A stretch of 64,000 nt of DNA from a phage, in the NCBI GenBank assembly GCA_012549035.1, contig GCA_012549035.1_4805.1. One strand, written 5' to 3'. The translations under genes and the position numbers were made by a program. Of this stretch, positions 4,748 to 53,660 are shown in pieces. Under the pieces are notes generated by a model that did no database searches, had not been told where the DNA came from, and saw only the letters and a program-made list of their open reading frames with translations. How positions within the stretch are numbered: position 1 is the stretch's first letter; every line of letters starts with the position of its first letter.

Positions 4748-5244
4748 TAAATGGACCCCAATATGCTCTGCGCCACGCCCTTGGCAATTTGAGACGTGCT
4801 CTGCGCGCCGCCGTAGCTGGCAAACACAAATGTGTATCGGTTTGTCTTGCGACGGCCTGATTGCTCTATGGAGTCACCAAGCGGACCGCTGATTATTGTT
4901 CCGTTAGAGAATGCCACCCTTCCACCGTCAGGATATGTAATAAGCATTGATGTCACATCCTGAATTGGCAACCACTTGAATCCCCCTTTACGGGCAGATA
5001 ATAAAAGCTTAAGATTTATGTCATCTTCAGTGTTTGGAATGACCGCAATGGATACGCGAACGACGGCGGCTTTGTCGTATATGCAAATGCCGCCGTCGTA
5101 AGTAAGTTGATAACCTACTGATTCAACTTCCTCAATAATTAGCGAATCCTGGTCATCAGACAAAGAACTGATATTCAGCCCAACAGGAAAAGATTGAAGA
5201 GCGACAATTCTAATGCTTGTGCCAAATCCACTAATATTGACCAT
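4747..5244 (-). CDS. tail tube-like protein, paralog of 6195..6662
   Basis: N-terminus MVNISGFGTSIRIVALQSFPVG aligns with MINVSGFGASIRLVASNTFPNG of 6195..6662; further shared blocks along the length. Confidence 0.6.
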   Translation of the reverse strand: MVNISGFGTSIRIVALQSFPVGLNISSLSDDQDSLIIEEVESVGYQLTYDGGICIYDKAAVVRVSIAVIPNTEDDINLKLLLSARKGGFKWLPIQDVTSMLITYPDGGRVAFSNGTIISGPLGDSIEQSGRRKTNRYTFVFASYGGAQSTSQIAKGVAQSILGSI

Positions 5245-5246
5245 GT

Positions 5247-5513
5247 TTACTCCGCAGATGCAGATTTAACTGCAGCAAGAATTTCATCCTTATAAGAAAG
5301 ACCCTTGATGTCGATGCCATTTTCTTTGGCATAAGACTTCAATTCTGAAACGCTCATGGAATCAAAATCGAGTTTTTGTTCAACGGACTTTTCTTCGACC
5401 TGCTCTTTGATTTCTGTAACAGACTCAACCTTCTTATTAAACAGCTCTGATGCGTCTTCAAATTTTTCGCCAAATTTCATGACGCCATTTGCAAAATGAA
5501 TTACTTGTGCCAT
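5247..5513 (-). CDS. hypothetical acidic protein (88 aa)
   Basis: ORF in tail module, tightly packed. Confidence 0.5.
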   Translation of the reverse strand: MAQVIHFANGVMKFGEKFEDASELFNKKVESVTEIKEQVEEKSVEQKLDFDSMSVSELKSYAKENGIDIKGLSYKDEILAAVKSASAE

Positions 5514-5869
5514 TATTGATTACTCACCTTTATACGTTCGCCATAAATAGTCACCACTTCTGCAGTGAATCCAAGGATACCGTTTTGGATGGTGACAGTC
5601 AATGAGTCGATTCCGGCAACGTCTGCTTTCTTCAGAATAGCATCTGCAATCGACTTTCGCGCACCGTCTTCGTCAACGGGCGACTTGAAAACGGTCCCCA
5701 AATAATCGACCCCGTTTTCTATATCGTACAAGTCTTCACCAAGTCGCATCTGATGCGCGGCCTTGATTACTTGCACCATCGCTTTTTCTCCTGAAAGAAT
5801 ATTTAAGTTTCTTCCATCAGGTAGAAAAAGGTCATTATTTTCGTTCACTTCAATGGTTAGAGTTGTCAA
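5513..5869 (-). CDS. hypothetical tail protein (118 aa)
   Basis: ORF in tail module, overlapping start/stop. Confidence 0.5.
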   Translation of the reverse strand: MTTLTIEVNENNDLFLPDGRNLNILSGEKAMVQVIKAAHQMRLGEDLYDIENGVDYLGTVFKSPVDEDGARKSIADAILKKADVAGIDSLTVTIQNGILGFTAEVVTIYGERIKVSNQ

Positions 5870-6195: not shown

Positions 6196-6662
6196 TATAA
6201 AATCTCTTGGTTGCTCACGCCAGTTTTGACTACGTTCTCAAACTTGAAGCGATATTGACGTGTTTTCACACGACCTTGAGACTGGATGCCAGGAATTACT
6301 GAACCAGTTGTCAAGGTGCCTTTGTTTAGCGTGATAACCATTCCAGAAGGATAAGTCAGCACAAGTGTGATCACGTCTTTTGCGGAGTTCTTGCGCTTGC
6401 CTACGCGGTTTGCAGCTGCAAGAACGTCCAAGTTGACATCACTTTCAGAAGTAGGGATGATGTTCACACCTACTTCAAGCGGGTTTGCACGGTTCCACAC
6501 TACTAAGTCACCGTTAAGGCCCATTGCAGCCTCAGAGATTTGCAGGTCCGGCGCGTCAATCGGATCAGCATCATCTGCAAAATCAGAAAGGGTCACACCA
6601 TTAGGGAAAGTGTTTGATGCTACCAAACGAATCGAAGCGCCAAAACCGGAAACGTTAATCAT
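6195..6662 (-). CDS. tail tube protein (155 aa)
   Basis: Immediately downstream of the sheath gene; paralogous to 4747..5244. Confidence 0.6.
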   Translation of the reverse strand: MINVSGFGASIRLVASNTFPNGVTLSDFADDADPIDAPDLQISEAAMGLNGDLVVWNRANPLEVGVNIIPTSESDVNLDVLAAANRVGKRKNSAKDVITLVLTYPSGMVITLNKGTLTTGSVIPGIQSQGRVKTRQYRFKFENVVKTGVSNQEIL

Positions 6663-6709
6663 TACAGATTCCTCTCAGAGAGATGGCCGCCAGTTACGGC
6701 GGCAATTAT

Positions 6710-30338: not shown

Positions 30339-30612
30339 CGTATCATGACGTATCATCCGTATTGCCGCAAGTCTTTGTTTTTACTTATATCTTACGGATA
30401 ATACGTTAAATATATAAATTAACATAAGTATGAGGATGTAGAAAAAAATTAATTTAAATTAATTCAAAATGGAGTTAATTAATTTTTGAAATAATTCTGG
30501 TTACAATAAGGAAAAATGGCGTATCATCCGTATCATCCGTAAGATTCAGTGTACAAATCCAGGCGCGGCGCACCCTAGCGCCATGATACGGATAAAAACC
30601 TATCCGTAAGAG
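30339..30612. repeat. iteron-rich intergenic region B
   Basis: CGTATCAT(G/C) tandem units at 30339-30364 and 30519-30547; 29-bp segment GCGTATCATCCGTATCATCCGTAAGATTC identical to 14265-14293; AT-rich palindromes at 30410-30490; AATCCAGGCGCGGCGC x2. Confidence 0.7.
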
Positions 30613-30840
30613 TGTACGCTTCAAGCAAAGAATCCAGGCGCGGCGCGGCTTTCGCCACCACACACCACGGTTCACTCTCCAAAATCCGCACACTAAATTC
30701 CAAAATCCAATGCTCATACTCCAAAAATAAATCAAAATTTCCATTTTATTTATTATTTTCATCCACAATATCCTAAATTCTATCCGTATCAACCATGCCT
30801 CAACCCACCACTATTCACGCCACTCACTTCAAAATTTCCA

Positions 30841-30873
30841 TCGAAAACAACAAAAGGTCGCATAAAGCGACCC
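30841..30873 (-). terminator. intrinsic terminator ending the early operon
   Basis: On minus strand GGTCGC-tttat-GCGACC followed by TTTTGTTGTTTT, about 50 nt after stop of 30925..31464. Confidence 0.6.
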
Positions 30874-30924
30874 ATTGCACACATTCCATTATTCAAAACA
30901 CGTAAACGAGTGTTCTTTTATCCA

Positions 30925-31464
30925 CTATAATTTAGGCATCAATCCCTTTTCCGTTCTCCTTTTTATCTCGTCTTCTATCATTTTATTGGTTACTCTATAC
31001 CCAATCCTCTCCAATTCCAGCAATACTTCCTTTTGGTATTTTCTTATTTTTACGATGTCGACCGTATCCCTCCAATAAGATAATACCTTCTTAATGACTG
31101 ACTTTTCCATTTTATATCTGGCTGTCGTCATATATTTCATTTTGAAAATAGAGTTGATGGCATCCGTCTTTAACCATTCCTTTCTTAATTCAGGATGATC
31201 ATCCCAAAGAGCAATGGCGAACTCCTGCGGACTTTTGCACCTGCTTTGAAGCTCCTTTATGTAGTCGACCGTTTTCACTTTTCTATCTAAACGCTCGCGG
31301 CAAACGGTGCACTCTTCCTTGAGCAACCAATCGGCCTTCTTGTCAATTTGCAAAGTTGAATTACCATCCCTTTTATACCTGCCGCAAATGCTTATGCCTT
31401 CATCTTTTAAGAAGTAATGCAACTCTTTAGAGTATTTCGCTTTACGCCAAAAGCCTCCCATCAC
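30925..31464 (-). CDS. hypothetical Cys-rich protein (179 aa)
   Basis: Last gene of minus-strand early operon; CxxC-like pairs (CGRY...CTVC). Confidence 0.55.
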   Translation of the reverse strand: MMGGFWRKAKYSKELHYFLKDEGISICGRYKRDGNSTLQIDKKADWLLKEECTVCRERLDRKVKTVDYIKELQSRCKSPQEFAIALWDDHPELRKEWLKTDAINSIFKMKYMTTARYKMEKSVIKKVLSYWRDTVDIVKIRKYQKEVLLELERIGYRVTNKMIEDEIKRRTEKGLMPKL

Positions 31465-31883
31465 CCCTCCTTAACGACCCGATAAGCAACAATCTTTGCG
31501 CCAGTCGGGCTTGCCACTGCACCCCAGTTCAAATTATCCGAAGGGACGGCCTCTTTTGATTTATAACCGTTGAGTAATTCAAACATGACCATCTTCCCAG
31601 GCACCGGATTATCGCCACCAAACCACACGGTCCACGCTTCTTCCTTTTGTGCGACAGTCTTCTTGCTTTGTTCGATGATGTCACTAAAATTCTTCACTAC
31701 CAGCTCAGCGGCTTTGATGCACTCGTGGTATTGTTCAATCTCTTTTGTTAGAGAATCATTAAGCTTGAGTAGTGATTCATAGTCCTCATATGCAACAAAA
31801 CGTCCTTCGTGACTTTCTGGAACAGGAGTGATGTCGAAATCTTCTGTCGCCACATCGTATGTCAGATCATAACGTTGTATCAT
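31461..31883 (-). CDS. hypothetical protein with shared C-terminal domain (140 aa)
   Basis: C-terminus WTVWFGGDNPVPGK...IVAYRVVKEG paralogous to C-terminus of 33034..33534. Confidence 0.55.
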   Translation of the reverse strand: MIQRYDLTYDVATEDFDITPVPESHEGRFVAYEDYESLLKLNDSLTKEIEQYHECIKAAELVVKNFSDIIEQSKKTVAQKEEAWTVWFGGDNPVPGKMVMFELLNGYKSKEAVPSDNLNWGAVASPTGAKIVAYRVVKEG

Positions 31884-32367
31884 TTAACTTCTCCAAAATT
31901 TCAATAGCGATTTGCGTTTGCTTCTCAAGAGCGATACGCAACATGTCAATTTGCAAGTCACGGTGAGCCAGTTCAGCGGCGATGTCCGACTTGCTGTAAA
32001 GTCCTTCGTGAGTCATGGCATAAATGTGGCGCGTATAATAGCCGCCCTCGTCGAGTTGCTCGATGTCACGTTGCCCGACTGCGTATTGTTTATCGGTTGA
32101 TGGCGCTTGGATTTTGATTGATTCGACTTCTTGAAGAGAATAAATTGATGCTGGTCGGTTCTCTTCAAACGTCTTTACTTGGTCAATGCGCTGACACCAA
32201 GATGATTCACCGATTTCAAATCCCCACTGTCCGTGTGTGCTTACCCATGAAGGTTTCTTCTCATACACCCAAATGCTGCCATTAGAATCGCGCGCAACGA
32301 ATCGTGCACGAGCGTCTATTTCGTATTCTTTACCTTCGAACTTGATGCGCTGTCTATTGTTAGTCAT
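31867..32367 (-). CDS. hypothetical protein (166 aa)
   Basis: ORF in early operon, overlapping start/stop. Confidence 0.5.
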   Translation of the reverse strand: MTNNRQRIKFEGKEYEIDARARFVARDSNGSIWVYEKKPSWVSTHGQWGFEIGESSWCQRIDQVKTFEENRPASIYSLQEVESIKIQAPSTDKQYAVGQRDIEQLDEGGYYTRHIYAMTHEGLYSKSDIAAELAHRDLQIDMLRIALEKQTQIAIEILEKLNDTTL

Positions 32368-32696
32368 GATGCATCCTTAGTTGGATAGAATTTAGGGTTG
32401 TTCTTATAGAATGCCTTGAGCCATGCCTTTGCTTCTGCGATGCTGCTGAACTCTTCCTTGGAGAGTCCGGTGCGGTCCTCGCCTGCGACCTTGAAATGGA
32501 TGCGCACCTTGAGCCGAAGGTTGGTTGCTCTCGCGTAGTGGCCTTCATAGCCGTGATGGTCGAGGCTTACGATTGCGGCAAGCAGCTCGCAGTCTTCTTT
32601 ATCGGGATTGCCGCTGTAACAAGTCGGCCAGCCGCGACGTTGGAATGACCTGTATTGGCCTGTTGGCTCAGGGTCCACGTACCATTTCAATTTCAT
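32364..32696 (-). CDS. hypothetical protein (110 aa)
   Basis: ORF in early operon, 4-nt overlaps. Confidence 0.5.
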   Translation of the reverse strand: MKLKWYVDPEPTGQYRSFQRRGWPTCYSGNPDKEDCELLAAIVSLDHHGYEGHYARATNLRLKVRIHFKVAGEDRTGLSKEEFSSIAEAKAWLKAFYKNNPKFYPTKDAS

Positions 32697-33034
32697 TTAA
32701 CCTTCTCCAATTGGAATCTTGTTTCTGGAAAGCCTGCGACAAACATGTCACGACCCTCGACATCACGCTTCACGAACCAACGCATGCCGTTGACTACCGT
32801 GAAGACAATTTGCCTTCCATCAATAATAAGTCCTTTTGCCTCATAAAGCAAATAAGTCTGACCGACTTTGAAGCTCAATATGTCCTTGCTTGTGCTGGTG
32901 CACTTGAGCCGCCACTGGGTGAGATTGGATTCACTCGCCTCGATGTCAACAACCTTACCGCGCAGCGGCGATGTGCGTTGAATCTCTTTCATTTGCTCGT
33001 CGAACGTTAGCTCACGGCCTTCTTGCTCTTCCAT
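32693..33034 (-). CDS. hypothetical protein (113 aa)
   Basis: ORF in early operon. Confidence 0.5.
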   Translation of the reverse strand: MEEQEGRELTFDEQMKEIQRTSPLRGKVVDIEASESNLTQWRLKCTSTSKDILSFKVGQTYLLYEAKGLIIDGRQIVFTVVNGMRWFVKRDVEGRDMFVAGFPETRFQLEKVK

Positions 33035-33534
33035 TATTCCTCCACGACGCGATAAGCGATGATGTCATCGCCGCTTCCAACGTGCTTCCATCTTACTGAT
33101 TGTGAGCCGTAACACCCGACGGACTTTATCCCGCTTCTCATTTTGTACTTGATAATCTTCCCAGGCACCGGATTCTCGCCTCCAGCCCATTCAATCCAAC
33201 CTTCATGAGACTCTTCGGACTTCTTCAATTGCTCATGCTTCTCACCAATGTGGGCAATTGGTTGGTTGCTGTTGTAAAAGAATCCAAGCGCAACATCGTA
33301 GCACGGATGACTATGAGAAAGACAGATGTCATCACACCAAAGCTCCATGGTGCGCGACTTAAGCGTCATGATATTGGTATACCACTCGATGGTGTAGTGG
33401 TCGTTAAGGTTGCCGACGATGTAGAAGTTGCGACAAAAGTGCGAAGCATCGTCAGACTTCTCGCGGCGATAGCTTTTGATTGCGCCAGCCTTTACAGCCA
33501 TTTCCAGTACTGCTTCGAGTTGTTTGATTTTCAT
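33034..33534 (-). CDS. hypothetical protein with shared C-terminal domain (166 aa)
   Basis: C-terminus WIEWAGGENPVPGK...IIAYRVVEE paralogous to 31461..31883. Confidence 0.55.
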   Translation of the reverse strand: MKIKQLEAVLEMAVKAGAIKSYRREKSDDASHFCRNFYIVGNLNDHYTIEWYTNIMTLKSRTMELWCDDICLSHSHPCYDVALGFFYNSNQPIAHIGEKHEQLKKSEESHEGWIEWAGGENPVPGKIIKYKMRSGIKSVGCYGSQSVRWKHVGSGDDIIAYRVVEE

Positions 33535-33767
33535 TTCTTTACTCCGAGTTCAATTTGATAGCCGATTGACAATTCATTTTCGCCGATGGTAAATGCATCG
33601 ACGGGCTGCGACATCACCGCTTTTAAATATACCTTCTTGCGCCGCTTCGCCTTGTACAAGCAACGGTCGCCGCTGCGGTTGTAAATATTAAGCCAGGTGC
33701 GCTTACTAATCTTATACGGCACATGCGGCTTGATGAATAATAAACGGGCCTTAAGATTTGATGTCAT
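33531..33767 (-). CDS. hypothetical basic protein (78 aa)
   Basis: ORF in early operon, overlapping start/stop. Confidence 0.45.
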   Translation of the reverse strand: MTSNLKARLLFIKPHVPYKISKRTWLNIYNRSGDRCLYKAKRRKKVYLKAVMSQPVDAFTIGENELSIGYQIELGVKK

Positions 33768-34044
33768 AATATTTACCTCCAGCCATATTCTCTTTAATTT
33801 CTTTTAATGCTGCACGACCTGCTTTTGTCATCACCACGGATGAATAGCGCGTCGTGTCTTTCTCACCTGGCATTGCCCAATCAACAAGGCCCAGGCGGAA
33901 TAAGACAGGGATTGATGGCGCATTGATGTCGTGAAATAGTGATGGCCGCTTTTCATAAGCCTTCTTGCGGTCGCCGCGCAGCATGTATGGCGTTCCGTCT
34001 TCCATCCGGTACAATGTTTGAATTTGCGCTAGGCTTAGTCTCAT
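33751..34044 (-). CDS. hypothetical protein (97 aa)
   Basis: ATG 34044 with GGAGAA RBS; track start is TTG at 34059. Confidence 0.5.
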   Translation of the reverse strand: MRLSLAQIQTLYRMEDGTPYMLRGDRKKAYEKRPSLFHDINAPSIPVLFRLGLVDWAMPGEKDTTRYSSVVMTKAGRAALKEIKENMAGGKYYDIKS

Positions 34045-34225
34045 TGTTGTCTTCTCCAAACTGCGTGTAATGTTTTCTGGTCGAACTTGGACAGCGTTTC
34101 ACGCTCCGATGCCTTAAGGAATCGCGTGCCAAAGAATAACATACCTTGCGGCGTTTTAACGAGCGACACGCCTTTGTTACGGTAAAGCTTACCAAGGCTG
34201 ATGCGTTGTGGACTTCGGTACTCAT
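33953..34225 (-). CDS. possible Arg-rich small protein (90 aa), overlapping frame
   Basis: ATG 34225 with AAGGAG RBS right after promoter cassette, but overlaps 33751..34044 by about 90 nt and has low-complexity composition. Confidence 0.3.
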   Translation of the reverse strand: MSTEVHNASALVSFTVTKACRSLKRRKVCYSLARDSLRHRSVKRCPSSTRKHYTQFGEDNNETKPSANSNIVPDGRRNAIHAARRPQEGL

Positions 34226-34253
34226 AATCAGTTCTCCTTTGCTTGATGAACTA

Positions 34254-34281
34254 AGTATAATACAGGCAAATAAAAAGGCAA
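34254..34281 (-). promoter_or_regulatory. early-operon promoter cassette copy 1 (TTGCCT-N16-TATACT)
   Basis: Minus-strand TCAAAAAGGTGAGCTAGATGCTTGCCTTTTTATTTGCCTGTATTATACTTAGTTCATCAAG; near-duplicate at 35514..35542. Confidence 0.45.
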
Positions 34282-34303
34282 GCATCTAGCTCACCTTTTT
34301 GAA

Positions 34304-34564
34304 TTAAATATTCTTCGCCTCTTCGTGGAGGCCGACTGACCTTAGTTTGCGTCGCAAGTAAGCTTTCTTCTCGCTCTCCCGTCCTGCTGGGGTGACTCGC
34401 CAACGTAATGTGTTCTCCAGATTCTTGCGTCGGTTGTGCTCGTCGAGTAGCTCTACCAGTGCCTTTGCATCGTCGAGTGTTAACACCACGGGCCGCGACC
34501 CATTAACGGCTTGTCGAAGCTTCCGCGCGGCAACGGCCAGCTTAGTCATCGGACCCTTGTTCAC
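34304..34564 (-). CDS. hypothetical protein (86 aa)
   Basis: ORF in early operon. Confidence 0.5.
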   Translation of the reverse strand: MNKGPMTKLAVAARKLRQAVNGSRPVVLTLDDAKALVELLDEHNRRKNLENTLRWRVTPAGRESEKKAYLRRKLRSVGLHEEAKNI

Positions 34565-34953
34565 GGCAACTCCTTATTCATCGGCGTTATGGAAAGCACC
34601 TTCACTTCAGTGATGTCACGGTTGTATTCGCGCTTGATTTGTAGAATCTGGGATTGGATGCGCGCGATAAAATGCGGCGTGATTCCTTCCTTAACGTTAA
34701 TCCAGGCCGCAAGCTGCATCGAGTCGATGTCACTTCTCAATGTCGTTGGGCAGTTAATAGCACTTGGTGCACCACTAGCACCGTAAGCAAGTTGCGCGTC
34801 ATAAGCTGAATACTTGAATGACACCAGGAACATTCTTTCTTCAAGCTGACTCTCGCTCTTAGGATTCTTATCACAATTAGTCATGTGCTGCACAAACTCT
34901 TCGTGTGGAAGATGCATCACATCGTGGCAATACGGACAACGTTTCATTCTCAT
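34561..34953 (-). CDS. hypothetical zinc-finger-like protein (130 aa)
   Basis: N-terminal CPYCH...H...C motif. Confidence 0.5.
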   Translation of the reverse strand: MRMKRCPYCHDVMHLPHEEFVQHMTNCDKNPKSESQLEERMFLVSFKYSAYDAQLAYGASGAPSAINCPTTLRSDIDSMQLAAWINVKEGITPHFIARIQSQILQIKREYNRDITEVKVLSITPMNKELP

Positions 34954-35186
34954 TTTGCATACTCCATAGCATATTGCTGCAGCTTAAACGCAGCCTTTTG
35001 TAATTGTTTGTGGCGTTCAAATAACGTCTCACGCTTTTCAGCAGGGCAATCGGCGCGAAGCATTGTTATGGCAACGCTTGACATAGCATTCAATAAAAAC
35101 TGAAAACAAGACACCATTCTCAGCTCATTGCGCTTGTTGAAAGACAACTTACCCAGCGCGGCATTCATAATTGCACCTCGACACAC
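34950..35186 (-). CDS. hypothetical protein (78 aa)
   Basis: ORF in early operon, 4-nt overlap. Confidence 0.45.
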   Translation of the reverse strand: MCRGAIMNAALGKLSFNKRNELRMVSCFQFLLNAMSSVAITMLRADCPAEKRETLFERHKQLQKAAFKLQQYAMEYAK

Positions 35187-35482
35187 GATTCACTAGCCGA
35201 GAATCCCCAGCCTTCCAGACCGACTTCGCCGCAACAGCGCACCTTTGCCCAACCAGTCATGAGCCATTGGCGATACTTTTCGAAGTATGTTGGCTTTTCT
35301 GAATAACAATGAACAAGGCCGTCGTCATCAATGGCCACGTAACGCGTCCAAGGCGCAACGGGTACAACTACGTCGGGGTGCGACTCTGGCCAAGGCTTGA
35401 TGTGTACAGCTGTGTTCAAGTCTACGTTTAACACGCTGCCTAACCGCTCGTCTTGCTCCTGGTCGATGCCTAAGTAAATCAT
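35165..35482 (-). CDS. hypothetical protein (105 aa)
   Basis: ATG 35482 with GAGGTG RBS; track N-terminal extension rejected. Confidence 0.5.
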   Translation of the reverse strand: MIYLGIDQEQDERLGSVLNVDLNTAVHIKPWPESHPDVVVPVAPWTRYVAIDDDGLVHCYSEKPTYFEKYRQWLMTGWAKVRCCGEVGLEGWGFSASESCVEVQL

Positions 35483-35513
35483 AATCACCTCGCTTGTTTG
35501 TCTTGATGAAAAG

Positions 35514-35542
35514 AGTATAAGTATTGATAAAAGAAAAGGCAA
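35514..35542 (-). promoter_or_regulatory. early-operon promoter cassette copy 2 (TTGCCT-N17-TATACT)
   Basis: Minus-strand TCAAAAAGGTGAGCTAAATGCTTGCCTTTTCTTTTATCAATACTTATACTCTTTTCATCAAG. Confidence 0.45.
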
Positions 35543-38057: not shown

Positions 38058-38705
38058 TTATCCTGTGGCCTGCATATTGCGTACATACTTCTGCTCTAAT
38101 GAATAGATGAAGTCGGCGACAGTCAATCCCTTCGTGTGCCATTCATACATGGTGAAGCCTGTATTCAGGAAATAGCCGCGCACCTTGTCCATCGCTTCAG
38201 CTTCCTCCATTGAAGCCATCAGCGCGGCGACGTTGTCATAAGAAGGCACAAATCCCTTCTTGCGTAGCGCATTGCGCAAATCTTTAGTTCTGAAGCCAAT
38301 CTTGCAAGGGTCATCGCGGCCCGTGGATGATGCAACCTTTGGAAGAGCAAGGAACTCTTTGAGGAACATTGCAATGTTCAAGTCGCCTGCATCATCAAGC
38401 TTCTGGATTCGGTTGCGACCGCGACCCTTGAATTCACTCGCACGAGGGTGAGCGCCAAAACAGTGCGCCCCTTCCAGTTTAGGGTCAATGATCATCACAT
38501 CTTTCCCAATGCGCAGCTCTACGTAGTAAAGATAAGACTCATCGACAAGCTTTGTGCGCTTGCAAGTGATTGAGTCCTTATCATAACCAAAGCCGCGCAA
38601 CACGGTTGAGATCATTCGGTTCATTTCTTCGCCGTGAACGTCACTTTCTTTGTTCAGTTCACCAAGATGTTGAAAGAATTTAGCGATGTTGATTGCTTTA
38701 TTCAT
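38058..38705 (-). CDS. hypothetical protein (215 aa)
   Basis: 1-nt overlap with helicase gene stop. Confidence 0.55.
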   Translation of the reverse strand: MNKAINIAKFFQHLGELNKESDVHGEEMNRMISTVLRGFGYDKDSITCKRTKLVDESYLYYVELRIGKDVMIIDPKLEGAHCFGAHPRASEFKGRGRNRIQKLDDAGDLNIAMFLKEFLALPKVASSTGRDDPCKIGFRTKDLRNALRKKGFVPSYDNVAALMASMEEAEAMDKVRGYFLNTGFTMYEWHTKGLTVADFIYSLEQKYVRNMQATG

Positions 38706-40375
38706 CAGAATTCATCCTTATCTCTTCCCAAAGAACGTTTACGCTCAATAACCTTCTTCAAGAATTCAATATCTTCAGGGTCAGACTCATCGCGGATAAG
38801 ATACGCTAAGATGGTCATCAAATCAGAAATGTATTCTCCTGCTTCATTCTTAATCAGCGGCGTAAAGTACCCGCGCTGGTTGCGATAGGTTGCAGGCTCA
38901 AAACCAAGCTTCGACATGTGCGGCGCAAGGGTACGAGAGAAAGGCGACTTGCCACACTTCGCTCTGAATCCCATAGCAATAGCGCCACTGGTGATGTGCC
39001 AGCGTCCGCTGTGATGTCGGTCATAAGGCGCGGTGATGACGACTTCAACAAGGTCGTTGTCGACCATCTCATCACGGATAACGCCGCGCGCACGTTCCAT
39101 TTCGTTCTTGCTGAACTCAGTAAGCATGCGAGATGTTTCACCAACAAACGCGTTATAGCCTGCTTCGCCGTGCTTCTCCATCCACGCAGCGCACTCAGCC
39201 ATAAGCTGCCAAACGTCTTCTTTCAAAGTGGAAAGGTCGGCTTGGAAGTCCTTAGACCAGTTCGGTTGCCCGTCCTTGTCAGCGAGTTGGCCAACAAAGA
39301 TAGGGTACACACGACGGTTGCCCGTGTCGTCACGCTGCATGCCTGCGTATTCGTTGCCGTCCATGATCGCAATCCACTGGCGTGGTTTAACCTGCGTATC
39401 TTCAAATTTGAAGTCCAGGTCATCTTCCGTCTTAGTCAGGAATGCTTTCATGTTTTCGATGTCGGCCTTTTTAAAGCCTGTCATCTCGCCAACGTTCGCG
39501 ATAATTGAGCGACCCGTGATAGCTCGCAAGAACGGGTTGAAGTTTTGCGCGGCTAAGTTCAACGGAATCGGTGTTGCGTGGCGGTCGTTCATAATAGCTT
39601 CGCAAAGCAGCTTGCTAAAATAACTCTTCCCTGCGTTCTGGCCGCCGATGAGCGCAATGGAGATTGGCGCTTGACAGCCAGGGTTGGTCAGGCGGTTGTA
39701 GAGCGATAGCCAAAAATACACACCGATTTGTCGGTTTAACTCTGTATCGAACGGTCGGAATAGCTCGATAAGGTATTTCTCGATGCGCGCAGTACCGTCC
39801 CATTCAGGCAGCTTCTTGTAGAAGAAGTCCATCAGGTCGTCGCGCTGATAACGCATGGCCCATTCCTTATAGGATTGAGCGACCTGACGTGAGTTTGGGT
39901 TGGACAACCCTGCTGCGTCGACAGCGGCAACTATCTCTGTGACTTCCAAGGTACGGTCAGTGAATGTTTCGCCGCGATGGTCGACTAAGCGCCCACGAAA
40001 AGTATCTTTGTGAGGGAATGGAACAACGCCACTTCCCTTATCAAACAACGCGTCGAACACCGCATAACGGTTCATGTCACTCGTCCGGTCTGCCTGTAGA
40101 ACGAAGTCATCTTTAGTCGGCTTGTAGTGAGGGAACTTGATTACCTGAAGTGAGGCGAGCAAGCGTGCTCTTTCAACCAAGTCTTCTTCACCGTAGCATT
40201 CCATGCGCTCTGAATCTTTTTCAACGGCTTTATGTTGAAGGCTGATTTTAGCTCTGGTGCCTTGCTGCTCTGCTGCCTGCATTTCTTCCGAAACACCTGC
40301 ATCTTGAATTTCGTCAAAGATTGCACCAAATTCATCACCTGTATCCTCTGGAAGATTGTCATTATTAATTGACAT
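38705..40375 (-). CDS. SF3-type NTPase / helicase (VirE / D5-like primase-associated)
   Basis: 556 aa; Walker A IALIGGQNAGKS and downstream architecture typical of phage/plasmid primase C-terminal helicase domains. Confidence 0.7.
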   Translation of the reverse strand: MSINNDNLPEDTGDEFGAIFDEIQDAGVSEEMQAAEQQGTRAKISLQHKAVEKDSERMECYGEEDLVERARLLASLQVIKFPHYKPTKDDFVLQADRTSDMNRYAVFDALFDKGSGVVPFPHKDTFRGRLVDHRGETFTDRTLEVTEIVAAVDAAGLSNPNSRQVAQSYKEWAMRYQRDDLMDFFYKKLPEWDGTARIEKYLIELFRPFDTELNRQIGVYFWLSLYNRLTNPGCQAPISIALIGGQNAGKSYFSKLLCEAIMNDRHATPIPLNLAAQNFNPFLRAITGRSIIANVGEMTGFKKADIENMKAFLTKTEDDLDFKFEDTQVKPRQWIAIMDGNEYAGMQRDDTGNRRVYPIFVGQLADKDGQPNWSKDFQADLSTLKEDVWQLMAECAAWMEKHGEAGYNAFVGETSRMLTEFSKNEMERARGVIRDEMVDNDLVEVVITAPYDRHHSGRWHITSGAIAMGFRAKCGKSPFSRTLAPHMSKLGFEPATYRNQRGYFTPLIKNEAGEYISDLMTILAYLIRDESDPEDIEFLKKVIERKRSLGRDKDEF

Positions 40376-41686: not shown

Positions 41687-42769
41687 CTATTTTATGCCAC
41701 CTGCACGACGATTTATCATGTCAAGTTGATTCTCAATATAAGGCATGACGATTGCTTCAACAAAAGCAGTCCAACCTTTCTTGCCTTCCCCTTTCCGGTG
41801 ACAGTCGTGGGCGCAACCGAACACAAATTCATGTTCTGCACCAGGGATAGGGCCGCGAAAGTAAGCGCCATACGGGTCGCCGTTGGTGTGCTCTTCACCC
41901 CAAGGACAGATTATGCGGCACTTGCCTGACATATTCTCGATGACGTCGCCATCAGACCCTTCACCCATCTTGTTGCGCGCTAGAATTTGCTGGGCTATTT
42001 TATACCAAACGGCATCATACTTGTATTCATCGACGTCAATTTGAATCTCACGCTTTTGCGGCATGACGACGTGAAAGCCAAATGCCTGACAAATGTCTTC
42101 GATGGTGTAGCGCAAGGAGTAGTCTGCATGGACAAGTCGGCAGCGGAACGGGTCGCCGTTCTCATCGACATATTTATAGGGGCCGTCGTGAGTCACACGC
42201 TTGTTATTGATGCACCCAGGAACACGGCCCACGCGCGTTACGTCTTTAATCGTGTTGTCGCCGCCCTTCTTGAGTACCATGTTAACGAAAGACCCAAGGA
42301 ACGCTTTGAACTGAATAAGATGGTCAATCGGTTCTTTAAAGAAGTACCAAAGCTGGTGGTTGTTCGGTGAAGTCTCGACGATGACAGTCGGCTTCAGTCG
42401 CTCAAAAAAGAATTCCAAATCTAAATCGCCTTTGGACCCTTTACCGTGACCGATGTCGTCGACCATCATCGCCATACCGTGACCAAAGGCCGACTCTGTA
42501 CGCCAGTATCGCATCTCACCCGTCTTTGGGTTGGGAGACTTACGCATTGAACTGATGCAAGCATAGCCGTTTTGGTGCTGCATGAGCGGCTTGCCCAACT
42601 TCCAAGGCTTAGGCCAGAAGCTGCTGTTAATCTTCTTGCCGCGCTCGTCAGTCTGCACCGTTGCTTCAGGAGCAAACACCGTCATGACGCGCTCATCTTC
42701 TGGGATGCCTCTTTGGAGTTCTGTTAAAAACTCTTCAATTATTTTTGCTTCTTCTCTTAAACTAGCCAT
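41687..42769 (-). CDS. putative DNA primase (primase-polymerase-like) with C-terminal zinc-binding motif
   Basis: 360 aa; motif VETSPNNHQLWYFF resembles the sGxGxH motif of archaeo-eukaryotic-type primases; C-terminal C/H cluster; upstream of SF3 helicase. Confidence 0.5.
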   Translation of the reverse strand: MASLREEAKIIEEFLTELQRGIPEDERVMTVFAPEATVQTDERGKKINSSFWPKPWKLGKPLMQHQNGYACISSMRKSPNPKTGEMRYWRTESAFGHGMAMMVDDIGHGKGSKGDLDLEFFFERLKPTVIVETSPNNHQLWYFFKEPIDHLIQFKAFLGSFVNMVLKKGGDNTIKDVTRVGRVPGCINNKRVTHDGPYKYVDENGDPFRCRLVHADYSLRYTIEDICQAFGFHVVMPQKREIQIDVDEYKYDAVWYKIAQQILARNKMGEGSDGDVIENMSGKCRIICPWGEEHTNGDPYGAYFRGPIPGAEHEFVFGCAHDCHRKGEGKKGWTAFVEAIVMPYIENQLDMINRRAGGIK

Positions 42770-42862
42770 CTTTCTTTCCTTTGGTGATCAATACCTGCAG
42801 TATAATATTGAGTGATACAAAGTCAACAATATTTACCATTTAGTTCACAATTTCGATTTACT

Positions 42863-42929: not shown

Positions 42930-43256
42930 ATGAACGAAAAAGAGACGAAGCAACGCGAACGTGCAACACACGTCGGAATCGTTGAGTCCTTCCTTAATAC
43001 AAGATTGAATTCAAGCCTAACAATCATGCGATTCCTGGGTCAACCAGACAGAATCAAATTTATTTTTGCCGCAAATCCGGTATCGCTGTACATCCCTGTT
43101 GAATCCATGGCGTACTTAGTGCGCGACGAGAAAGGATGGAAGATACCAAACACAACTGTTTTCTTCAGCCATGTTGATGGTGAGATGTTTGAACGAAAAG
43201 AAGATTGCCATTTTATTCCAGTATATCTGGACCTTGAAAGCGTAGTGGAGTTATAA
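42930..43256 (+). CDS. hypothetical protein (108 aa)
   Basis: First gene of plus-strand replication module. Confidence 0.55.
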   Translation: MNEKETKQRERATHVGIVESFLNTRLNSSLTIMRFLGQPDRIKFIFAANPVSLYIPVESMAYLVRDEKGWKIPNTTVFFSHVDGEMFERKEDCHFIPVYLDLESVVEL

Positions 43257-44440
43257 TGAACATTCCAGAATTTAATGATGAGCCAGTGATTCAGTTTAAC
43301 GCGCAACAAATCGACGCCATCGAGAAAGCCGTTGCATGGTACAAGCGATTGCAGGACGGTAAAACGACGAAGCGCGTGTTTTTCATCGCTGGCTATGCAG
43401 GAACTGGTAAAACCTCTATTGCTCGCGAGATTGTGCGCCGTTGTGTCGGTGAGTATGGAGCTATCTATATTGCGCCGACCGGAAAGGCTGCAAGCCGATT
43501 AAAGCAAAAAGGCTGTCGTGGCGCTAAGACCCTTCACCAGTTCATCTATAACGTGCGCGGCGTAAATGACGACAATGAGCCAATCTTTTCGAGAAAGTCA
43601 AAGCTGGATGAAAGGCCGCACCTTGTTGTACTCGATGAAGCGTCGATGGTTGGCGAGTGGGACACAGAGCGCCTTCTTGATCACCGCATCCCTGTCCTGG
43701 CATTAGGCGACATTGGACAAGTCCCTCCGGTAAAAGCCGCCGCCTACTTTACTGAAGATGCCGTTGACGTACTGTTAACAGAAATCATGCGGCAAGGGAA
43801 AGAGTCCAATATAATCCGCGCCTCCTTCTTCGTGCGCCAAGGCAACCGCCTTCCTCCGCGTGAATACGATGACGTCAAAGTATTGGCAGAATCGCCGCGC
43901 GTTACTGCATTGAAGAAATTCATGGGCGAAGATGATCAAATTATTTGCTCCTATAATAGCACCAAAGATAAATGGAATTCATTATTACGGCAAGTGAGCG
44001 GACGTATAACGCCAATGCCAGGAATCGGCGAGAAAGTTATTTGCACCTTCAACCAGCACGGGCCAGGATTCTGTAATGGCGAGCAAGGGATTGTTATTAG
44101 CTATGAGCCAGTGCCGGACTTTGAAAGGGATGAAGATGAGTCGAATGAAATAATGTATGTCAACTTGCGTTCATTGACTGATGGTAAAGATATAAAGGTA
44201 AAGATTAATCCTCTTTCCTTCTCTACTGATCAGGAAGTGCGCAAAGAAGCGCAACGTGCTGTTGGCGGGATGGACTACGGCTATGTCATCACGGTGCACA
44301 AATCGCAAGGCAGCGAGTGGGACAATGTGTGCGTGCTGGAAGAAATCTTGCGCGGCGTTCCGTACTCCAAGATGATGTACACCGCTATCACCCGTGCTAA
44401 GAAGAATCTGACCGTGTACCGTGATTTGAAAGCGCGTTAA
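43256..44440 (+). CDS. SF1 DNA helicase (Dda / RecD-like)
   Basis: 394 aa; Walker A FIAGYAGTGKTS, DEAS box VVLDEASMV, and C-terminal ITVHKSQGSEWD motif. Confidence 0.75.
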   Translation: MNIPEFNDEPVIQFNAQQIDAIEKAVAWYKRLQDGKTTKRVFFIAGYAGTGKTSIAREIVRRCVGEYGAIYIAPTGKAASRLKQKGCRGAKTLHQFIYNVRGVNDDNEPIFSRKSKLDERPHLVVLDEASMVGEWDTERLLDHRIPVLALGDIGQVPPVKAAAYFTEDAVDVLLTEIMRQGKESNIIRASFFVRQGNRLPPREYDDVKVLAESPRVTALKKFMGEDDQIICSYNSTKDKWNSLLRQVSGRITPMPGIGEKVICTFNQHGPGFCNGEQGIVISYEPVPDFERDEDESNEIMYVNLRSLTDGKDIKVKINPLSFSTDQEVRKEAQRAVGGMDYGYVITVHKSQGSEWDNVCVLEEILRGVPYSKMMYTAITRAKKNLTVYRDLKAR

Positions 44441-50220: not shown

Positions 50221-50763
50221 GTGTTATTTCTCCCTTATGACTTCGAAACAACCGGATTAACCGTGCACCCGAAAGCGCCGCTTGGAATGCAGCCGCGCCC
50301 TATTGAATTTGCAGGCTTGCTGACAGACGGCAAAGAGATTCTTGAAACGTTTGAATTCATAATTAATCCTGAAATCGTGATCGAAGAAATCATCACAAAG
50401 ATTACCGGATTAACAAATGAAGACCTTGAGTGCAATCCACCGTTCATCAATTTCGTCCCGCAGCTAAAAGAAATCCTCAAGAAGACTGATGCAACTATCG
50501 CGCACAACCATGCGTTCGATAAAAACATTCTTGATTATGCACTACAGCGCGAAGGACTTACGCTTGATGATGTTAATTTTCCAGAAATAAACATATGTAC
50601 AGTTGAGCAAACCTTGCCTATTTTTGGCCGAAGAGTTAAGCTTCAAGAGCTGTATGAATTATATTTCGGAAAATATGAACAGAAGCACCGTGCATTAGAC
50701 GACGTAATATTACTGCACAAAGTCTGCCAACAAATTGGCGTATATGACATCTGGAGTAAATAA
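50221..50763 (+). CDS. DnaQ-like 3'-5' exonuclease (DEDDh)
   Basis: Exo I YDFETTGL, Exo II HNHAFDKNIL, Exo III HRALDD motifs. Confidence 0.7.
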   Translation: MLFLPYDFETTGLTVHPKAPLGMQPRPIEFAGLLTDGKEILETFEFIINPEIVIEEIITKITGLTNEDLECNPPFINFVPQLKEILKKTDATIAHNHAFDKNILDYALQREGLTLDDVNFPEINICTVEQTLPIFGRRVKLQELYELYFGKYEQKHRALDDVILLHKVCQQIGVYDIWSK

Positions 50764-53660
50764 TGTTTCCACAATTGAGAGTTCGCAGCGGTTACACGTT
50801 CAAAGAAGTTTATGGACGGCATCCTGAAATTATAGCACGGCTCAAAGAGTTGGGCTGCGAAGTCGCGGCATTAGTTGATAACAACACATGGGGTCACGTT
50901 CGCTGGGAAAAGGAATGCCAGAAAAATGATATTAAGCCTATGTTTGGAATGGAGATTCCAATCATCGACCCTGATGCGGACCCTAAAAAGGGATTCAAAC
51001 CGAAGGCTTGGATATTGGCCCTTGACTTAAAATCTTTTTACAACGCTACAACACTTTCAACGCAGCGCGGTGGACTTACCCGTTCAGAGTTCGGTGCGCT
51101 CGATGGCGTCGTTAAATTCTGTGGCGGTGCCGTGGAGTTGCTGCGGCCAGAGGACTACGACTATATAGACGTCAACCCATCATCGTTCCTTTTGGCAAAG
51201 CGCCAGGCATTGGCTCATCGTAGCAGTGGAAGGCCGCTGGTTTTAACCGGATACAACCACATGCCTTCACCTGAGCACGTTGACTTTGCTTATGCGTGGG
51301 AAGTGCGCGACACGGTCAAGCCGCACTGCATCGTTGACGCGGAAGACTTGCGCAAACAGCTTAAAGGCATCTTGACTGAAGATGAGCTCAATCAGGCAAC
51401 GGCCAATGCTGTTGACATAGCAAACGGCATAGTCGGACTTGACCTGAAATTACGCAAGGCACCGATTATTCACCTTGCTGGTGACATGGTAAAGCTTGCT
51501 CGCGAGGGTATGGAGTACCGTCTAAAAGCAGGTCACATCAAAGAATGGACTCAGGAATACGAGGACCGCTTCAACGAAGAAATTCACCAGATTCAGCTGA
51601 AAGATTTCGACTCATACTTTCTGGTGGTAGCGGACCTTGTACGATTCGCAAAAACAAAAATGCTCGTCGGTCCTGCGCGCGGCTCATCGGCTGGTTCACT
51701 TGTTTGCTATTGCCTCGGCATCACGGAAGTGGACCCAATCCCGTATAAGCTGCTGTTTGCCCGATTCATCGACGTAAGCCGCGCCGACCTTCCTGACATC
51801 GACATCGACTTTGAAGATACCAAACGCTATATGGTGTTTGATTATCTTAAAGAGAAATACGGCGAAATGAACGTTGCAAAGCTTGGCAACATCAACACGC
51901 TTAAGGCCAACTCAGTAATGGCTCAAGTTGGTAAGAAGTTCAACATTGGATACCACGAAACAGCCAACATTAAAAACGCACTGCTTGAATACTCATCCGG
52001 TGACGCCCGTTATGGTCACGGCCTGGAGGATACCTTTGCAACAACGACCACGGGTCAAGAGTTCGTGGCTAAATATCCCGATGCCGCGCGATGCATGGGT
52101 GACCTTGAGATTCACCCTTCCCACACTGGCGTTCACGCAGCGGGAATCATCGTGTGTAATGACCCAATCTCTGATTACTGTACTGTAACTGCAGAAGGGA
52201 TTGCGCAAATCGATAAGCCTGACAGCGAATACCTCAACCTTTTGAAGCTTGATGCACTGGGCCTTCGTACTCTCGGCATCATTTCTGATACAGGCGTCAT
52301 TGATGCTGAAACGCTGTACGGAATCAAGCTTGATGATCAAAGTGTCCTTGACATTCTTAATGAAAACAAAATGTCAGGCATCTTCCAGTTTGAAGGTGAT
52401 GCTGTACGCTCAGTAACAAACTTTGTGCACGTCGATAACTTTAACAAAATCGACAACCTGACGGCGTTGGGTCGACCTGGACCATTGTCATCCGGTATGG
52501 CCCAGAAATACATTGAACGCGCGGCAGGGCGTGCGCCGATTGAGTACGACGTGCCGCAGCTTGAGCCGTACTTGAAAGAGACTTACGGCGTGTTTCTTTA
52601 CCAAGAGCAAATCATGGCCGTGGTTAAAGAGATTGGTTCATTTGACTGGGCGAAAACATCCGCTGTACGTAAGGCGATGTCAGGCCGTAAGGGTGAGGAA
52701 TACTTTAACAAGCTTGGCGAAGACTTCGTTGCAGGCGCAATAAATAATGGCGTGCCGGAAGCGGATGCAAGAAAGCTTTGGCAGGCGATGGCGACGTTCG
52801 GGTCATGGGGCTTTAACAAGTCACACTCCGTGTCATACGCGGTCGTGACCTACTGGACCTTGTGGCTTAAACGACACTACCCGTTGGAATTTGCCGCTGC
52901 TTGCTTACGCGCTGCTAAGGACGAAGACCAGACGATTGCGATATTACGTGAACTTGCGAAGGAAGGCGTGGATTATGTGCCAATCGATCCTGATCACTCT
53001 TCAATGAACTGGACCATCGCTAACGGAAAGCTAATCGGCGGCATCATGAACGCTAAAGGGTACGGAATGGTGAAGGCGATGAAGTACATCGAAGCACGTG
53101 AAGCCGGAACCTTAACGCAAAAGCAGAAGGATGCATTGGCCAATGCTGAAGTCAAATACGGCGACCTTACAGAGATGCACACCAAGTTCGGCTGGGCATA
53201 TAATGACCCATATCTTATTGGCGTCACTTCCGGCGCTTCAATACGCCAGATGAAGGAAGTAGGCGATGATGAGCGTGCAATAGTAATCGGCAAGTTGACA
53301 AAGAAAGTGCTTGCGGACGAGAATGAAGCAACACGCATCCGTAAACGACTTGAGCGCGGCATCTATACAAAGCACGGCAAGCTTAAAAAGGGTCTTCAAG
53401 CTGATGGCCGCTACGCAGAGTTTGACCAGTACGGGAACAAGCTTGAGACTCAGTTCATCGACCTTATGTGCAAAGACGACTCGACCGACTCGCCAATGCG
53501 ATTCAGGATTCGTCCAGAGAAGTTCCAGAAGTACGGGAAGTACATCGCTGAAAACGTCGGGAACGGCGCATTCTTCCTGATGAAAGGTCGTAAGCTTGAA
53601 GGCATTGACATGTTCATTGTTGACGTGATCAAACAGGTGTACCCAGATGGCAACAAATAA
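50763..53660 (+). CDS. DnaE-type DNA polymerase III alpha-like catalytic subunit
   Basis: 965 aa; N-terminal PHP-like start and PDIDIDF polymerase active-site motif. Confidence 0.75.
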   Translation: MFPQLRVRSGYTFKEVYGRHPEIIARLKELGCEVAALVDNNTWGHVRWEKECQKNDIKPMFGMEIPIIDPDADPKKGFKPKAWILALDLKSFYNATTLSTQRGGLTRSEFGALDGVVKFCGGAVELLRPEDYDYIDVNPSSFLLAKRQALAHRSSGRPLVLTGYNHMPSPEHVDFAYAWEVRDTVKPHCIVDAEDLRKQLKGILTEDELNQATANAVDIANGIVGLDLKLRKAPIIHLAGDMVKLAREGMEYRLKAGHIKEWTQEYEDRFNEEIHQIQLKDFDSYFLVVADLVRFAKTKMLVGPARGSSAGSLVCYCLGITEVDPIPYKLLFARFIDVSRADLPDIDIDFEDTKRYMVFDYLKEKYGEMNVAKLGNINTLKANSVMAQVGKKFNIGYHETANIKNALLEYSSGDARYGHGLEDTFATTTTGQEFVAKYPDAARCMGDLEIHPSHTGVHAAGIIVCNDPISDYCTVTAEGIAQIDKPDSEYLNLLKLDALGLRTLGIISDTGVIDAETLYGIKLDDQSVLDILNENKMSGIFQFEGDAVRSVTNFVHVDNFNKIDNLTALGRPGPLSSGMAQKYIERAAGRAPIEYDVPQLEPYLKETYGVFLYQEQIMAVVKEIGSFDWAKTSAVRKAMSGRKGEEYFNKLGEDFVAGAINNGVPEADARKLWQAMATFGSWGFNKSHSVSYAVVTYWTLWLKRHYPLEFAAACLRAAKDEDQTIAILRELAKEGVDYVPIDPDHSSMNWTIANGKLIGGIMNAKGYGMVKAMKYIEAREAGTLTQKQKDALANAEVKYGDLTEMHTKFGWAYNDPYLIGVTSGASIRQMKEVGDDERAIVIGKLTKKVLADENEATRIRKRLERGIYTKHGKLKKGLQADGRYAEFDQYGNKLETQFIDLMCKDDSTDSPMRFRIRPEKFQKYGKYIAENVGNGAFFLMKGRKLEGIDMFIVDVIKQVYPDGNK

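Follow-up and report, generated by a model that had tools for sequence, protein, structure and literature searches.

Two small minus-strand genes of a phage genome (GenBank assembly GCA_012549035.1, contig GCA_012549035.1_4805.1) were found to end in copies of the same protein module, and alleles of this module are swapped in a cassette-like manner among related phages and between the two genes. The genes are here called A (31461..31883, 140 amino acids [aa]) and B (33034..33534, 166 aa), as taken from the list of open reading frames (ORFs), and all positions refer to the 64,000-nucleotide (nt) stretch that was analysed, hereafter the window. Judged by sequence, the module belongs to a family that is very large, spans phages and prophages and has no name in any curated library.

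When the two products were compared by BLASTP, only the C-termini aligned (residues 71-139 of A with 101-166 of B), with 30 of 69 positions identical (43%), 43 positives and an E value of 4e-16. The Smith-Waterman score of the pair was 144, compared to 28.9 +/- 4.9 (maximum 65) in 5000 shuffles of B, none of which reached 144. No BLASTP alignment was obtained for the N-terminal parts of A and B, and the PHROG families that they matched differ. These findings bear out the initial annotation of this region, which had proposed a common C-terminal module behind unrelated N-termini and had called for a shuffling control of the alignment. The motif that it had given was correct for GG-[DE]-NPVPGK ... 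AYRVV but not for W-x-W, which is W-x-x-W, one residue longer between the tryptophans. The motif common to A and B is W-x-x-W-x-G-G-[DE]-N-P-V-P-G-K ... W ... (I/V)AYRVV, with WTVWFGG in one copy and WIEWAGG in the other.

The module copy of A comprises residues 78-140 (31464..31652, minus strand), as delimited by BLASTP and by a profile match over profile positions 3-61 (E 6e-16), and the copy of B comprises residues 105-166 (33037..33222, minus strand; profile match E 1e-22). Two profiles, one made from the A and B copies and one from 96 diverse relatives, were run with filters off on all six-frame ORFs of the window, and exactly two copies were found, the next match having an E value of 0.29. 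At the DNA level the copies have an exact 20-nt match, AATCCGGTGCCTGGGAAGAT, which codes for NPVPGK and of which 0.01 are expected in shuffles. It lies on the minus strand at 31591..31610 in A, where it is a candidate recombination junction, and at 33155..33174 in B, where the identity among orthologues collapses just downstream. A match of 24 aa (E 3.6e-4) was also seen between the antisense frames 33106..33555 and 31578..31748 (both plus strand); it is a by-product of the common DNA and does not mark a gene.

The window is identified from its sequence as an E. coli myophage of the genus Wifcevirus. The region 30500-35500 had 85-95% DNA identity to 29 Escherichia and Shigella phages of this genus, including RCIP0319, Ro157lw, ECO71P1, WFC, WFH, FEC19, vB_Eco4M-7 and Bas98-101, and the genes under these matches are all labelled 'hypothetical protein' in the Wifcevirus records. 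Across 45 complete Wifcevirus orthologue clusters of B, the mean amino-acid identity was 0.90 in the N-terminal domain, 0.81 in the 5' flank of the module (GWIEWAGGxNPVPG), 0.41 in the module core and 0.94 in the 3' flank (DIIAYRVVEE). The core sequences fell into 11 clusters at 70% identity, taken as discrete alleles that diverged long ago. DNA identity dropped just after the NPVPGK codons to approximately 40% in the core of B, compared to 90-100% elsewhere in the same genes. One allele, E[IM]VEYKLRNGGDKVLSRLSDHLHWGHIGALKGSD, is carried on A in AV128, Bas100, Bas101, CWP003, FEC19, Ro157lw and ECO71P1 and on B in ECML-117 and P0309, and modules have therefore moved between the two genes. The alleles of A and those of B reassort freely in 19 genomes. 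In AV128 and Mansfield, B is cleanly devoid of the module, being 108 aa long with the downstream gene still abutting; the module is also missing from B in P0317 and P0321 and is frameshifted in P0281, P0319 and P0320. The module can thus be lost without loss of the gene and is dispensable. Together with the tandem modules on A of ECO71P1 described below, these findings confirm the domain shuffling that the initial annotation had supposed. Its word 'duplicated' suggests an event within this genome, which the findings do not support: identity between the two copies is only 43%, and each forms part of its own allele series, with reassortment among phages.

The ratio of nonsynonymous to synonymous substitution rates (dN/dS, Nei-Gojobori method) was estimated within one allele, b2, from 7 genomes giving 21 non-independent pairs, and was 0.15 in the N-terminus, 0.13 in the flanks and 0.17 in the core. 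The low value in the core indicates that each allele is a maintained functional variant and not a decaying or freely drifting loop. A diversity-generating retroelement was considered as the source of the alleles and was rejected, the alleles differing by block replacement at approximately 40% DNA identity. No template repeat for such an element was found in the window, where the sole DNA repeat of the module is the 20-nt junction; no search was aimed at a reverse transcriptase.

The product of gene A begins with a variable head, continues with a segment that is helical or a coiled coil and ends in a single module. Its product matched phrog_1378 over residues 9-57 and the module PHROGs over residues 58-138 (phrog_11995 at 2.5e-8 and phrog_9174 at 3.1e-5). 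The orthologues of A are mosaics of three segments, in which the head (three variants), the 'YEDY' junction and the helical segment (two variants) are followed by the module, which is present as five alleles and in two tandem copies in ECO71P1. The helical segment is duplicated in CWP003 and kaset. The junctions of the mosaic are short and conserved ('[FWV][VI]xYEDY' and 'EEAWTVW'), and every combination of head and coiled coil occurs. In the longer A proteins of CWP003 (191 aa) and kaset (222 aa), internal stretches are duplicated or inserted, with their edges at the 'EDYAALEAKY' junction.

Gene B codes for a Wifcevirus-specific alpha+beta N-terminal domain, a disordered linker and one C-terminal module. 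The N-terminal domain (residues 1-104; 33223..33534, minus strand) belongs to phrog_21861, which was matched over residues 1-103 with an E value of 1.2e-49 and with positions 1-103 of the 104 profile positions covered. This domain was found only in contigs of Wifcevirus size and is present in 53 Wifcevirus clusters. In the AlphaFold2 model of full-length B, two domains are predicted with a predicted local distance difference test (pLDDT) score of 83, and the module is set apart from the N-terminal domain by the disordered linker (residues 103-110; 33205..33228, minus strand), which has a pLDDT below 50 and 53% identity among orthologues. Over the module, B matched phrog_9174 (2.5e-13), phrog_26870 (4.6e-11), phrog_11995 (5.7e-10) and phrog_16943 (1.6e-8). 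A second mosaic patch was observed at 33265..33325 (approximately codons 70-90 of B) within the otherwise conserved N-terminal domain; its DNA identity was 60-66% to RCIP0319, WFC and Bas99 and 100% to ECO71P1 (LSHSHPCYDVALGFFYNSNQPI versus LSNTHPSYDVALAFYYGSRQPV).

In both genes, Shine-Dalgarno-like sequences were read directly from the DNA of the final codons of the module. In B, GGAGGA (33038..33043, minus strand) lies within the VVEE codons, with 3 nt between it and the ATG of the following gene. In A, AAGGAGG (31466..31472, minus strand) lies within the VVKEG codons, a short way upstream of the following gene, whose start overlaps A. On the minus strand, stop and start overlap as TAATG after B (33032..33043) and as GTGATG after A (31459..31472). 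We infer that GGAGGA and AAGGAGG serve the next gene as Shine-Dalgarno sequences, and the overlap of the stop codons with the next start suggests translational coupling of A and B with the genes that follow them. The embedded Shine-Dalgarno-like sequence is probably an added DNA-level constraint on the 3' flank of the module (the 'AYRVVEE/KEG' end).

The consensus of the module, of approximately 55-60 residues, is GWIeWxGGe[CN]PVPgxxVeVxlRdG-(8 variable)-A-(4)-WxH-(5 variable)-DI[VI]AYRVV. An AlphaFold2 model of the B module, computed from the 96-sequence alignment, is a small all-beta domain with a pLDDT of 88.9 and a predicted template modelling score (pTM) of 0.71, in which strands are predicted at positions 9-11, 23-28 and 54-61 and a short turn at 40-42; according to this model the module folds autonomously. 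Among 271 module instances, the most conserved residues were W8 (91%), W11 (96%), G13 (95%), P17 (98%), W44 (98%), I53 (91%), Y56 (94%) and R57 (90%); G14, V23, R28, G30, H46, D52 and A55 were also conserved. Positions 31-38, 40-43 and 45-51 were nearly free, with an entropy of approximately 4 bits at 31-38 and 45-51. Most instances were acidic, with a mean net charge of -3 and 79% of them negative, a composition that favours protein binding over nucleic-acid binding.

In a HMMER search of 1.84 billion cluster representatives, 4609 proteins matched the module at E<=1e-3 and 403 at E<=1e-10. An exhaustive profile search was needed, as a word-index search with the single B-module sequence returned only 4 relatives; a profile search of genome contigs with a narrow alignment returned 4 proteobacterial loci. 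By tblastn the module was found in 230 phage records, with hosts including Escherichia (Wifcevirus and rV5-like phages), Klebsiella, Burkholderia, Sinorhizobium, Rhizobium, Caulobacter, Aeromonas, Edwardsiella and Pseudomonas. Three records labelled 'Campylobacter phage' (MG065666.1, MG065682.1 and MG065674.1, approximately 135-141 kb) had the same module matches as rV5-like Escherichia phages (Vequintavirinae), and their host label may be questionable.

Among the 150 best-ranked relatives, in an order biased towards proteins with several copies, 50 had one module copy, 81 two, 18 three and 3 four. The module was N-terminal, internal or C-terminal in proteins of 57 to 1031 aa. Stand-alone proteins of 57-62 aa exist, in which the module makes up the entire gene product; it need not be a targeting appendage. 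Almost all of the 148 top relatives (147) matched phrog_9174. The module is joined to many unrelated partners, few of which are recognisable. Those in these 148 proteins, counted with Pfam, were DUF3310/SaV-like (5), dGTP_diPhyd_N (4), DUF6378 (3), dATP-dGTP_PPHyd (1), and Lar, DUF551 and RHH (one each), and the PHROG labels of partners included 'nucleotide kinase' and 'dATP/dGTP pyrophosphohydrolase'. An all-alpha nucleoside triphosphate pyrophosphatase-type domain of the MazG-like, DUF3310 or DUF6378 kind was present in 13 of the 148 relatives and absent from A and B according to Pfam. Bcep43 gp62, a fusion of DUF6378 and the module, adjoins a DNA polymerase gene, as does the module fusion HN03 ORF52. 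No conserved gene neighbourhood was seen in the loci looked up, where the module occurred beside NinX (a stand-alone form in a Herbaspirillum prophage), between head and tail genes, in a small-ORF block and between terminase and portal genes.

None of the libraries gave the module a name. Pfam had no match in the module for A and B at E<=0.1 or for 10 isolated modules at E<=10; the Pfam copy used was without the newest models (PF26207 and PF27050, which occur in precomputed annotations, were apparently absent) and may therefore have missed recent families, and precomputed newer annotations gave only PF26207, on a partner domain. Of the Pfam families matched by the 148 relatives, none was a candidate for the module, leaving aside the Tudor_Coilin match described below. 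NCBIfam had no match to the module. A search of BFVD with Foldseek brought up only phage proteins that have this domain and are themselves uncharacterised, and no library or structure match that would give the module a function was found. PF26207 (Phage_phiTE_015) was considered as the name of the module and was rejected: it describes an N-terminal 'FExW...WxAW' partner domain, seen in four relatives, because the translated phiTE_015 has no module. The 'FExW...WxAW' motif is absent from A and B. In Pectobacterium phage phiTE (locus 4970..5648), phiTE_015 is followed immediately by a Lar-like restriction-alleviation gene, and a NinX-like gene is close by. Three relatives carry the PHROG label 'endolysin; inhibits RNA polymerase', which was likewise rejected, having no Pfam support; phmmer with a T7 lysozyme sequence found nothing. 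PADLOC found no defence system match for A, B or 7 relatives, and nothing in this analysis ties A or B to a defence system. The literature consulted on the partner families PF26207, DUF3310 and DUF6378, on Ea22-like proteins and on domain shuffling with anti-defence contained nothing on the module domain. The host-interaction or anti-defence role, with an effector or targeting module, is a hypothesis of the initial annotation, and no library or structure match points to a function.

Six PHROGs (9174, 26870, 16943, 11995, 27780 and 13874), all of 'unknown function', contain the module, and their matches to A and B are confined to it. They are clusters of whole proteins without a domain definition, in which the module stands at different profile positions, and none of them is named, solved or functionally assigned. 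The module resembles the WW domain (PF00397) in being a small beta domain with signature tryptophans and a proline-containing turn that is often tandem and used as a plug-in for interactions. It differs in size (approximately 57 aa compared to 35) and in the W11-W44 spacing, which is 33 compared to 20-23 in WW domains. The only PDB match of the module profile, to the WW domain of Salvador (2ysb), was not significant (E 0.09), no Pfam WW match was obtained at E<=10, and the predicted strands do not form the three-stranded antiparallel meander of WW domains. Size, all-beta content, the long loop that follows the first strand and the short 3-10 turn that precedes the last recall SH3-like and Tudor barrels (SH3b, Tudor_Coilin PF23086), but superposition on solved SH3, Tudor and KOW domains gave no convincing score. 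Tudor_Coilin PF23086 was matched somewhere along the protein in 2 of the 148 relatives (E 2.3e-5), and not in A, B or 8 other modules.

The allele pattern is similar to that of tail-fibre cassettes, in which a conserved N-terminal part and a short conserved junction precede diverged C-terminal alleles that reassort horizontally, and cassette exchange of receptor-binding domains has been described for the T-shaped fibre of Wifcevirus (PMC11990801). Unlike fibre genes, A and B are small, lie in a replication and small-ORF operon and are not virion genes, and the exchanged unit is approximately 30 residues within a 57-aa domain. A further likeness is to the lambdoid nin/ea ORFs (Ea22-like coiled coil, NinX neighbours, DUF551, PF26207), which are small non-essential proteins built from interchangeable mini-domains. 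The head, 'YEDY' junction and coiled coil of A resemble these accessory proteins, and many relatives join a PF26207-type 'FExW...WxAW' N-terminal domain to the module. The module itself belongs to none of those families, and DUF551 was found in one relative only, as a separate domain.

We tentatively favour, at somewhat less than even confidence, the reading that the module is a protein-binding recognition domain that binds a host or phage macromolecule with a specificity differing from allele to allele, because this fits best with the aromatic scaffold and variable segment, the multivalent arrays, the flexible tethering and the acidic composition. The conserved Trp, Tyr, Ile and Val residues would form the scaffold, and profile positions 31-38 and 40-51 would form the recognition surface. 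The module might work singly, or multivalently by means of arrays or A's oligomerising coiled coil, or it might instead bring an N-terminal domain to the target, and it would behave as a non-essential accessory function. Several points weigh against this reading. All matched module-carrying PHROGs are of 'unknown function', with no partner, ligand or phenotype known for any member; across the family, the variable segments could be no more than loops free of constraint; and the within-allele dN/dS is based on few, non-independent pairs. The conserved polar residues R28, H46, D52 and R57 could mark a ligand site instead. Conservation of the 3' flank in Wifcevirus may be partly at the DNA level, because in A and B alike this flank includes the next gene's ribosome-binding site. 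A bolder form of the recognition-domain reading, which we hold to be unlikely, is that the module is an intracellular hypervariable recognition cassette for polymorphic host proteins of immunity or abortive infection, with specificities shuffled like tail-fibre domains. If true, this family, with its more than 4600 clusters, would amount to a major class of phage binders for counter-defence or host takeover that has gone unrecognised, with a fold not yet in the PDB.

The polar residues also lend themselves to the view that the module binds a nucleotide or small molecule as a sensor, regulator or sponge, with a pocket of Trp, Tyr, Arg, His and Asp to which the variable loops would be irrelevant. 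The strong conservation of R28, H46, D52 and R57, the fusion of 13 of the 148 top relatives to MazG-like nucleotide-pyrophosphohydrolase-type domains, the nucleotide-enzyme labels of PHROG partners, the position of Bcep43 gp62 and HN03 ORF52 beside DNA polymerase genes and the existence of 57-aa stand-alone forms, which would suit a sponge, are all consistent with it. We nevertheless consider it improbable: approximately 90% of the relatives examined, and likewise A and B, are without a nucleotide-enzyme partner, no structural likeness to known nucleotide-binding folds was found, and purifying selection on discrete core alleles is unexpected for a conserved small ligand. It is similarly doubtful that the variation represents escape, in which a host abortive-infection or other defence system senses the module or its carrier and alleles are exchanged or lost to evade it. 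Discrete alleles, free reassortment and a module cleanly lost from B, as in AV128 and Mansfield, would be expected in that case, and some relatives are fused to the SaV-like DUF3310, SaV being a lactococcal phage protein linked to AbiV sensitivity. It has also been reported (PMC11990801) that Wifcevirus phages lyse many strains on which they form no plaques. Escape leaves unexplained the retention of the domain, its spread over 4609 clusters and its tandem arrays; moreover, no defence system is known to sense the module, and purifying selection within an allele points to a positive function.

That the module has no specific function, and is a stable filler or oligomerisation domain spreading by virtue of ends convenient for recombination and translational coupling, appears less probable again. 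Its dispensability in some phages, the 20-nt exact junction and the Shine-Dalgarno-like sequence in the last module codons of both genes would be accounted for in this way, but the protein motif is kept over thousands of clusters despite differing codons, neighbours and hosts (alpha-, beta- and gamma-proteobacteria, high-GC), a stand-alone ORF exists and the core dN/dS within an allele is 0.17. There is little to recommend binding of nucleic acid in the manner of the small KOW, SH3-like or OB-like beta domains, with a role in replication or transcription; the predicted small all-beta domain, the operon that A and B form with primase genes opposite a helicase and Pol III alpha, and the DNA polymerase genes adjoining some relatives speak for it, and the acidic composition speaks against it. 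It is very improbable that the module is a repeat for binding cell wall or carbohydrate, as the SH3b, GW and choline-binding modules of lysins are.

Genes A and B lie on the minus strand inside a long run of small, tightly packed ORFs. Upstream of this block on the same strand are genes for a VapE-like primase/helicase (38705..40375) and a RepB-like primase (41687..42769), and past a divergent promoter-like region, which contains a putative sigma70-like promoter (42826..42799, minus strand), genes for a helicase (43256..44440) and Pol III alpha (50763..53660) lie on the opposite strand. A terminator-like hairpin from a consensus scan (30855..30873, minus strand) marks the end of the leftward block that holds A and B. 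Since this block sits downstream of the same-strand primase genes and is closed by the hairpin, assignment of A and B to the early class is plausible by position only.

Two other products of the same block, encoded at 31867..32367 and 35165..35542 (both minus strand), have in common a 27-residue motif, R[FY]VA-D--G----Y-[EK]KP------QW, with 10 of 27 residues identical (E 7e-5, single comparison), which may be a second shuffled mini-module. The product of 31867..32367 matched five different PHROGs in two separate parts. In the apparent structural-gene part of the window, the ORFs 4750..5265 and 6198..6674 (both minus strand) are paralogues, with 33% identity over 141 aa (E 1.7e-25).

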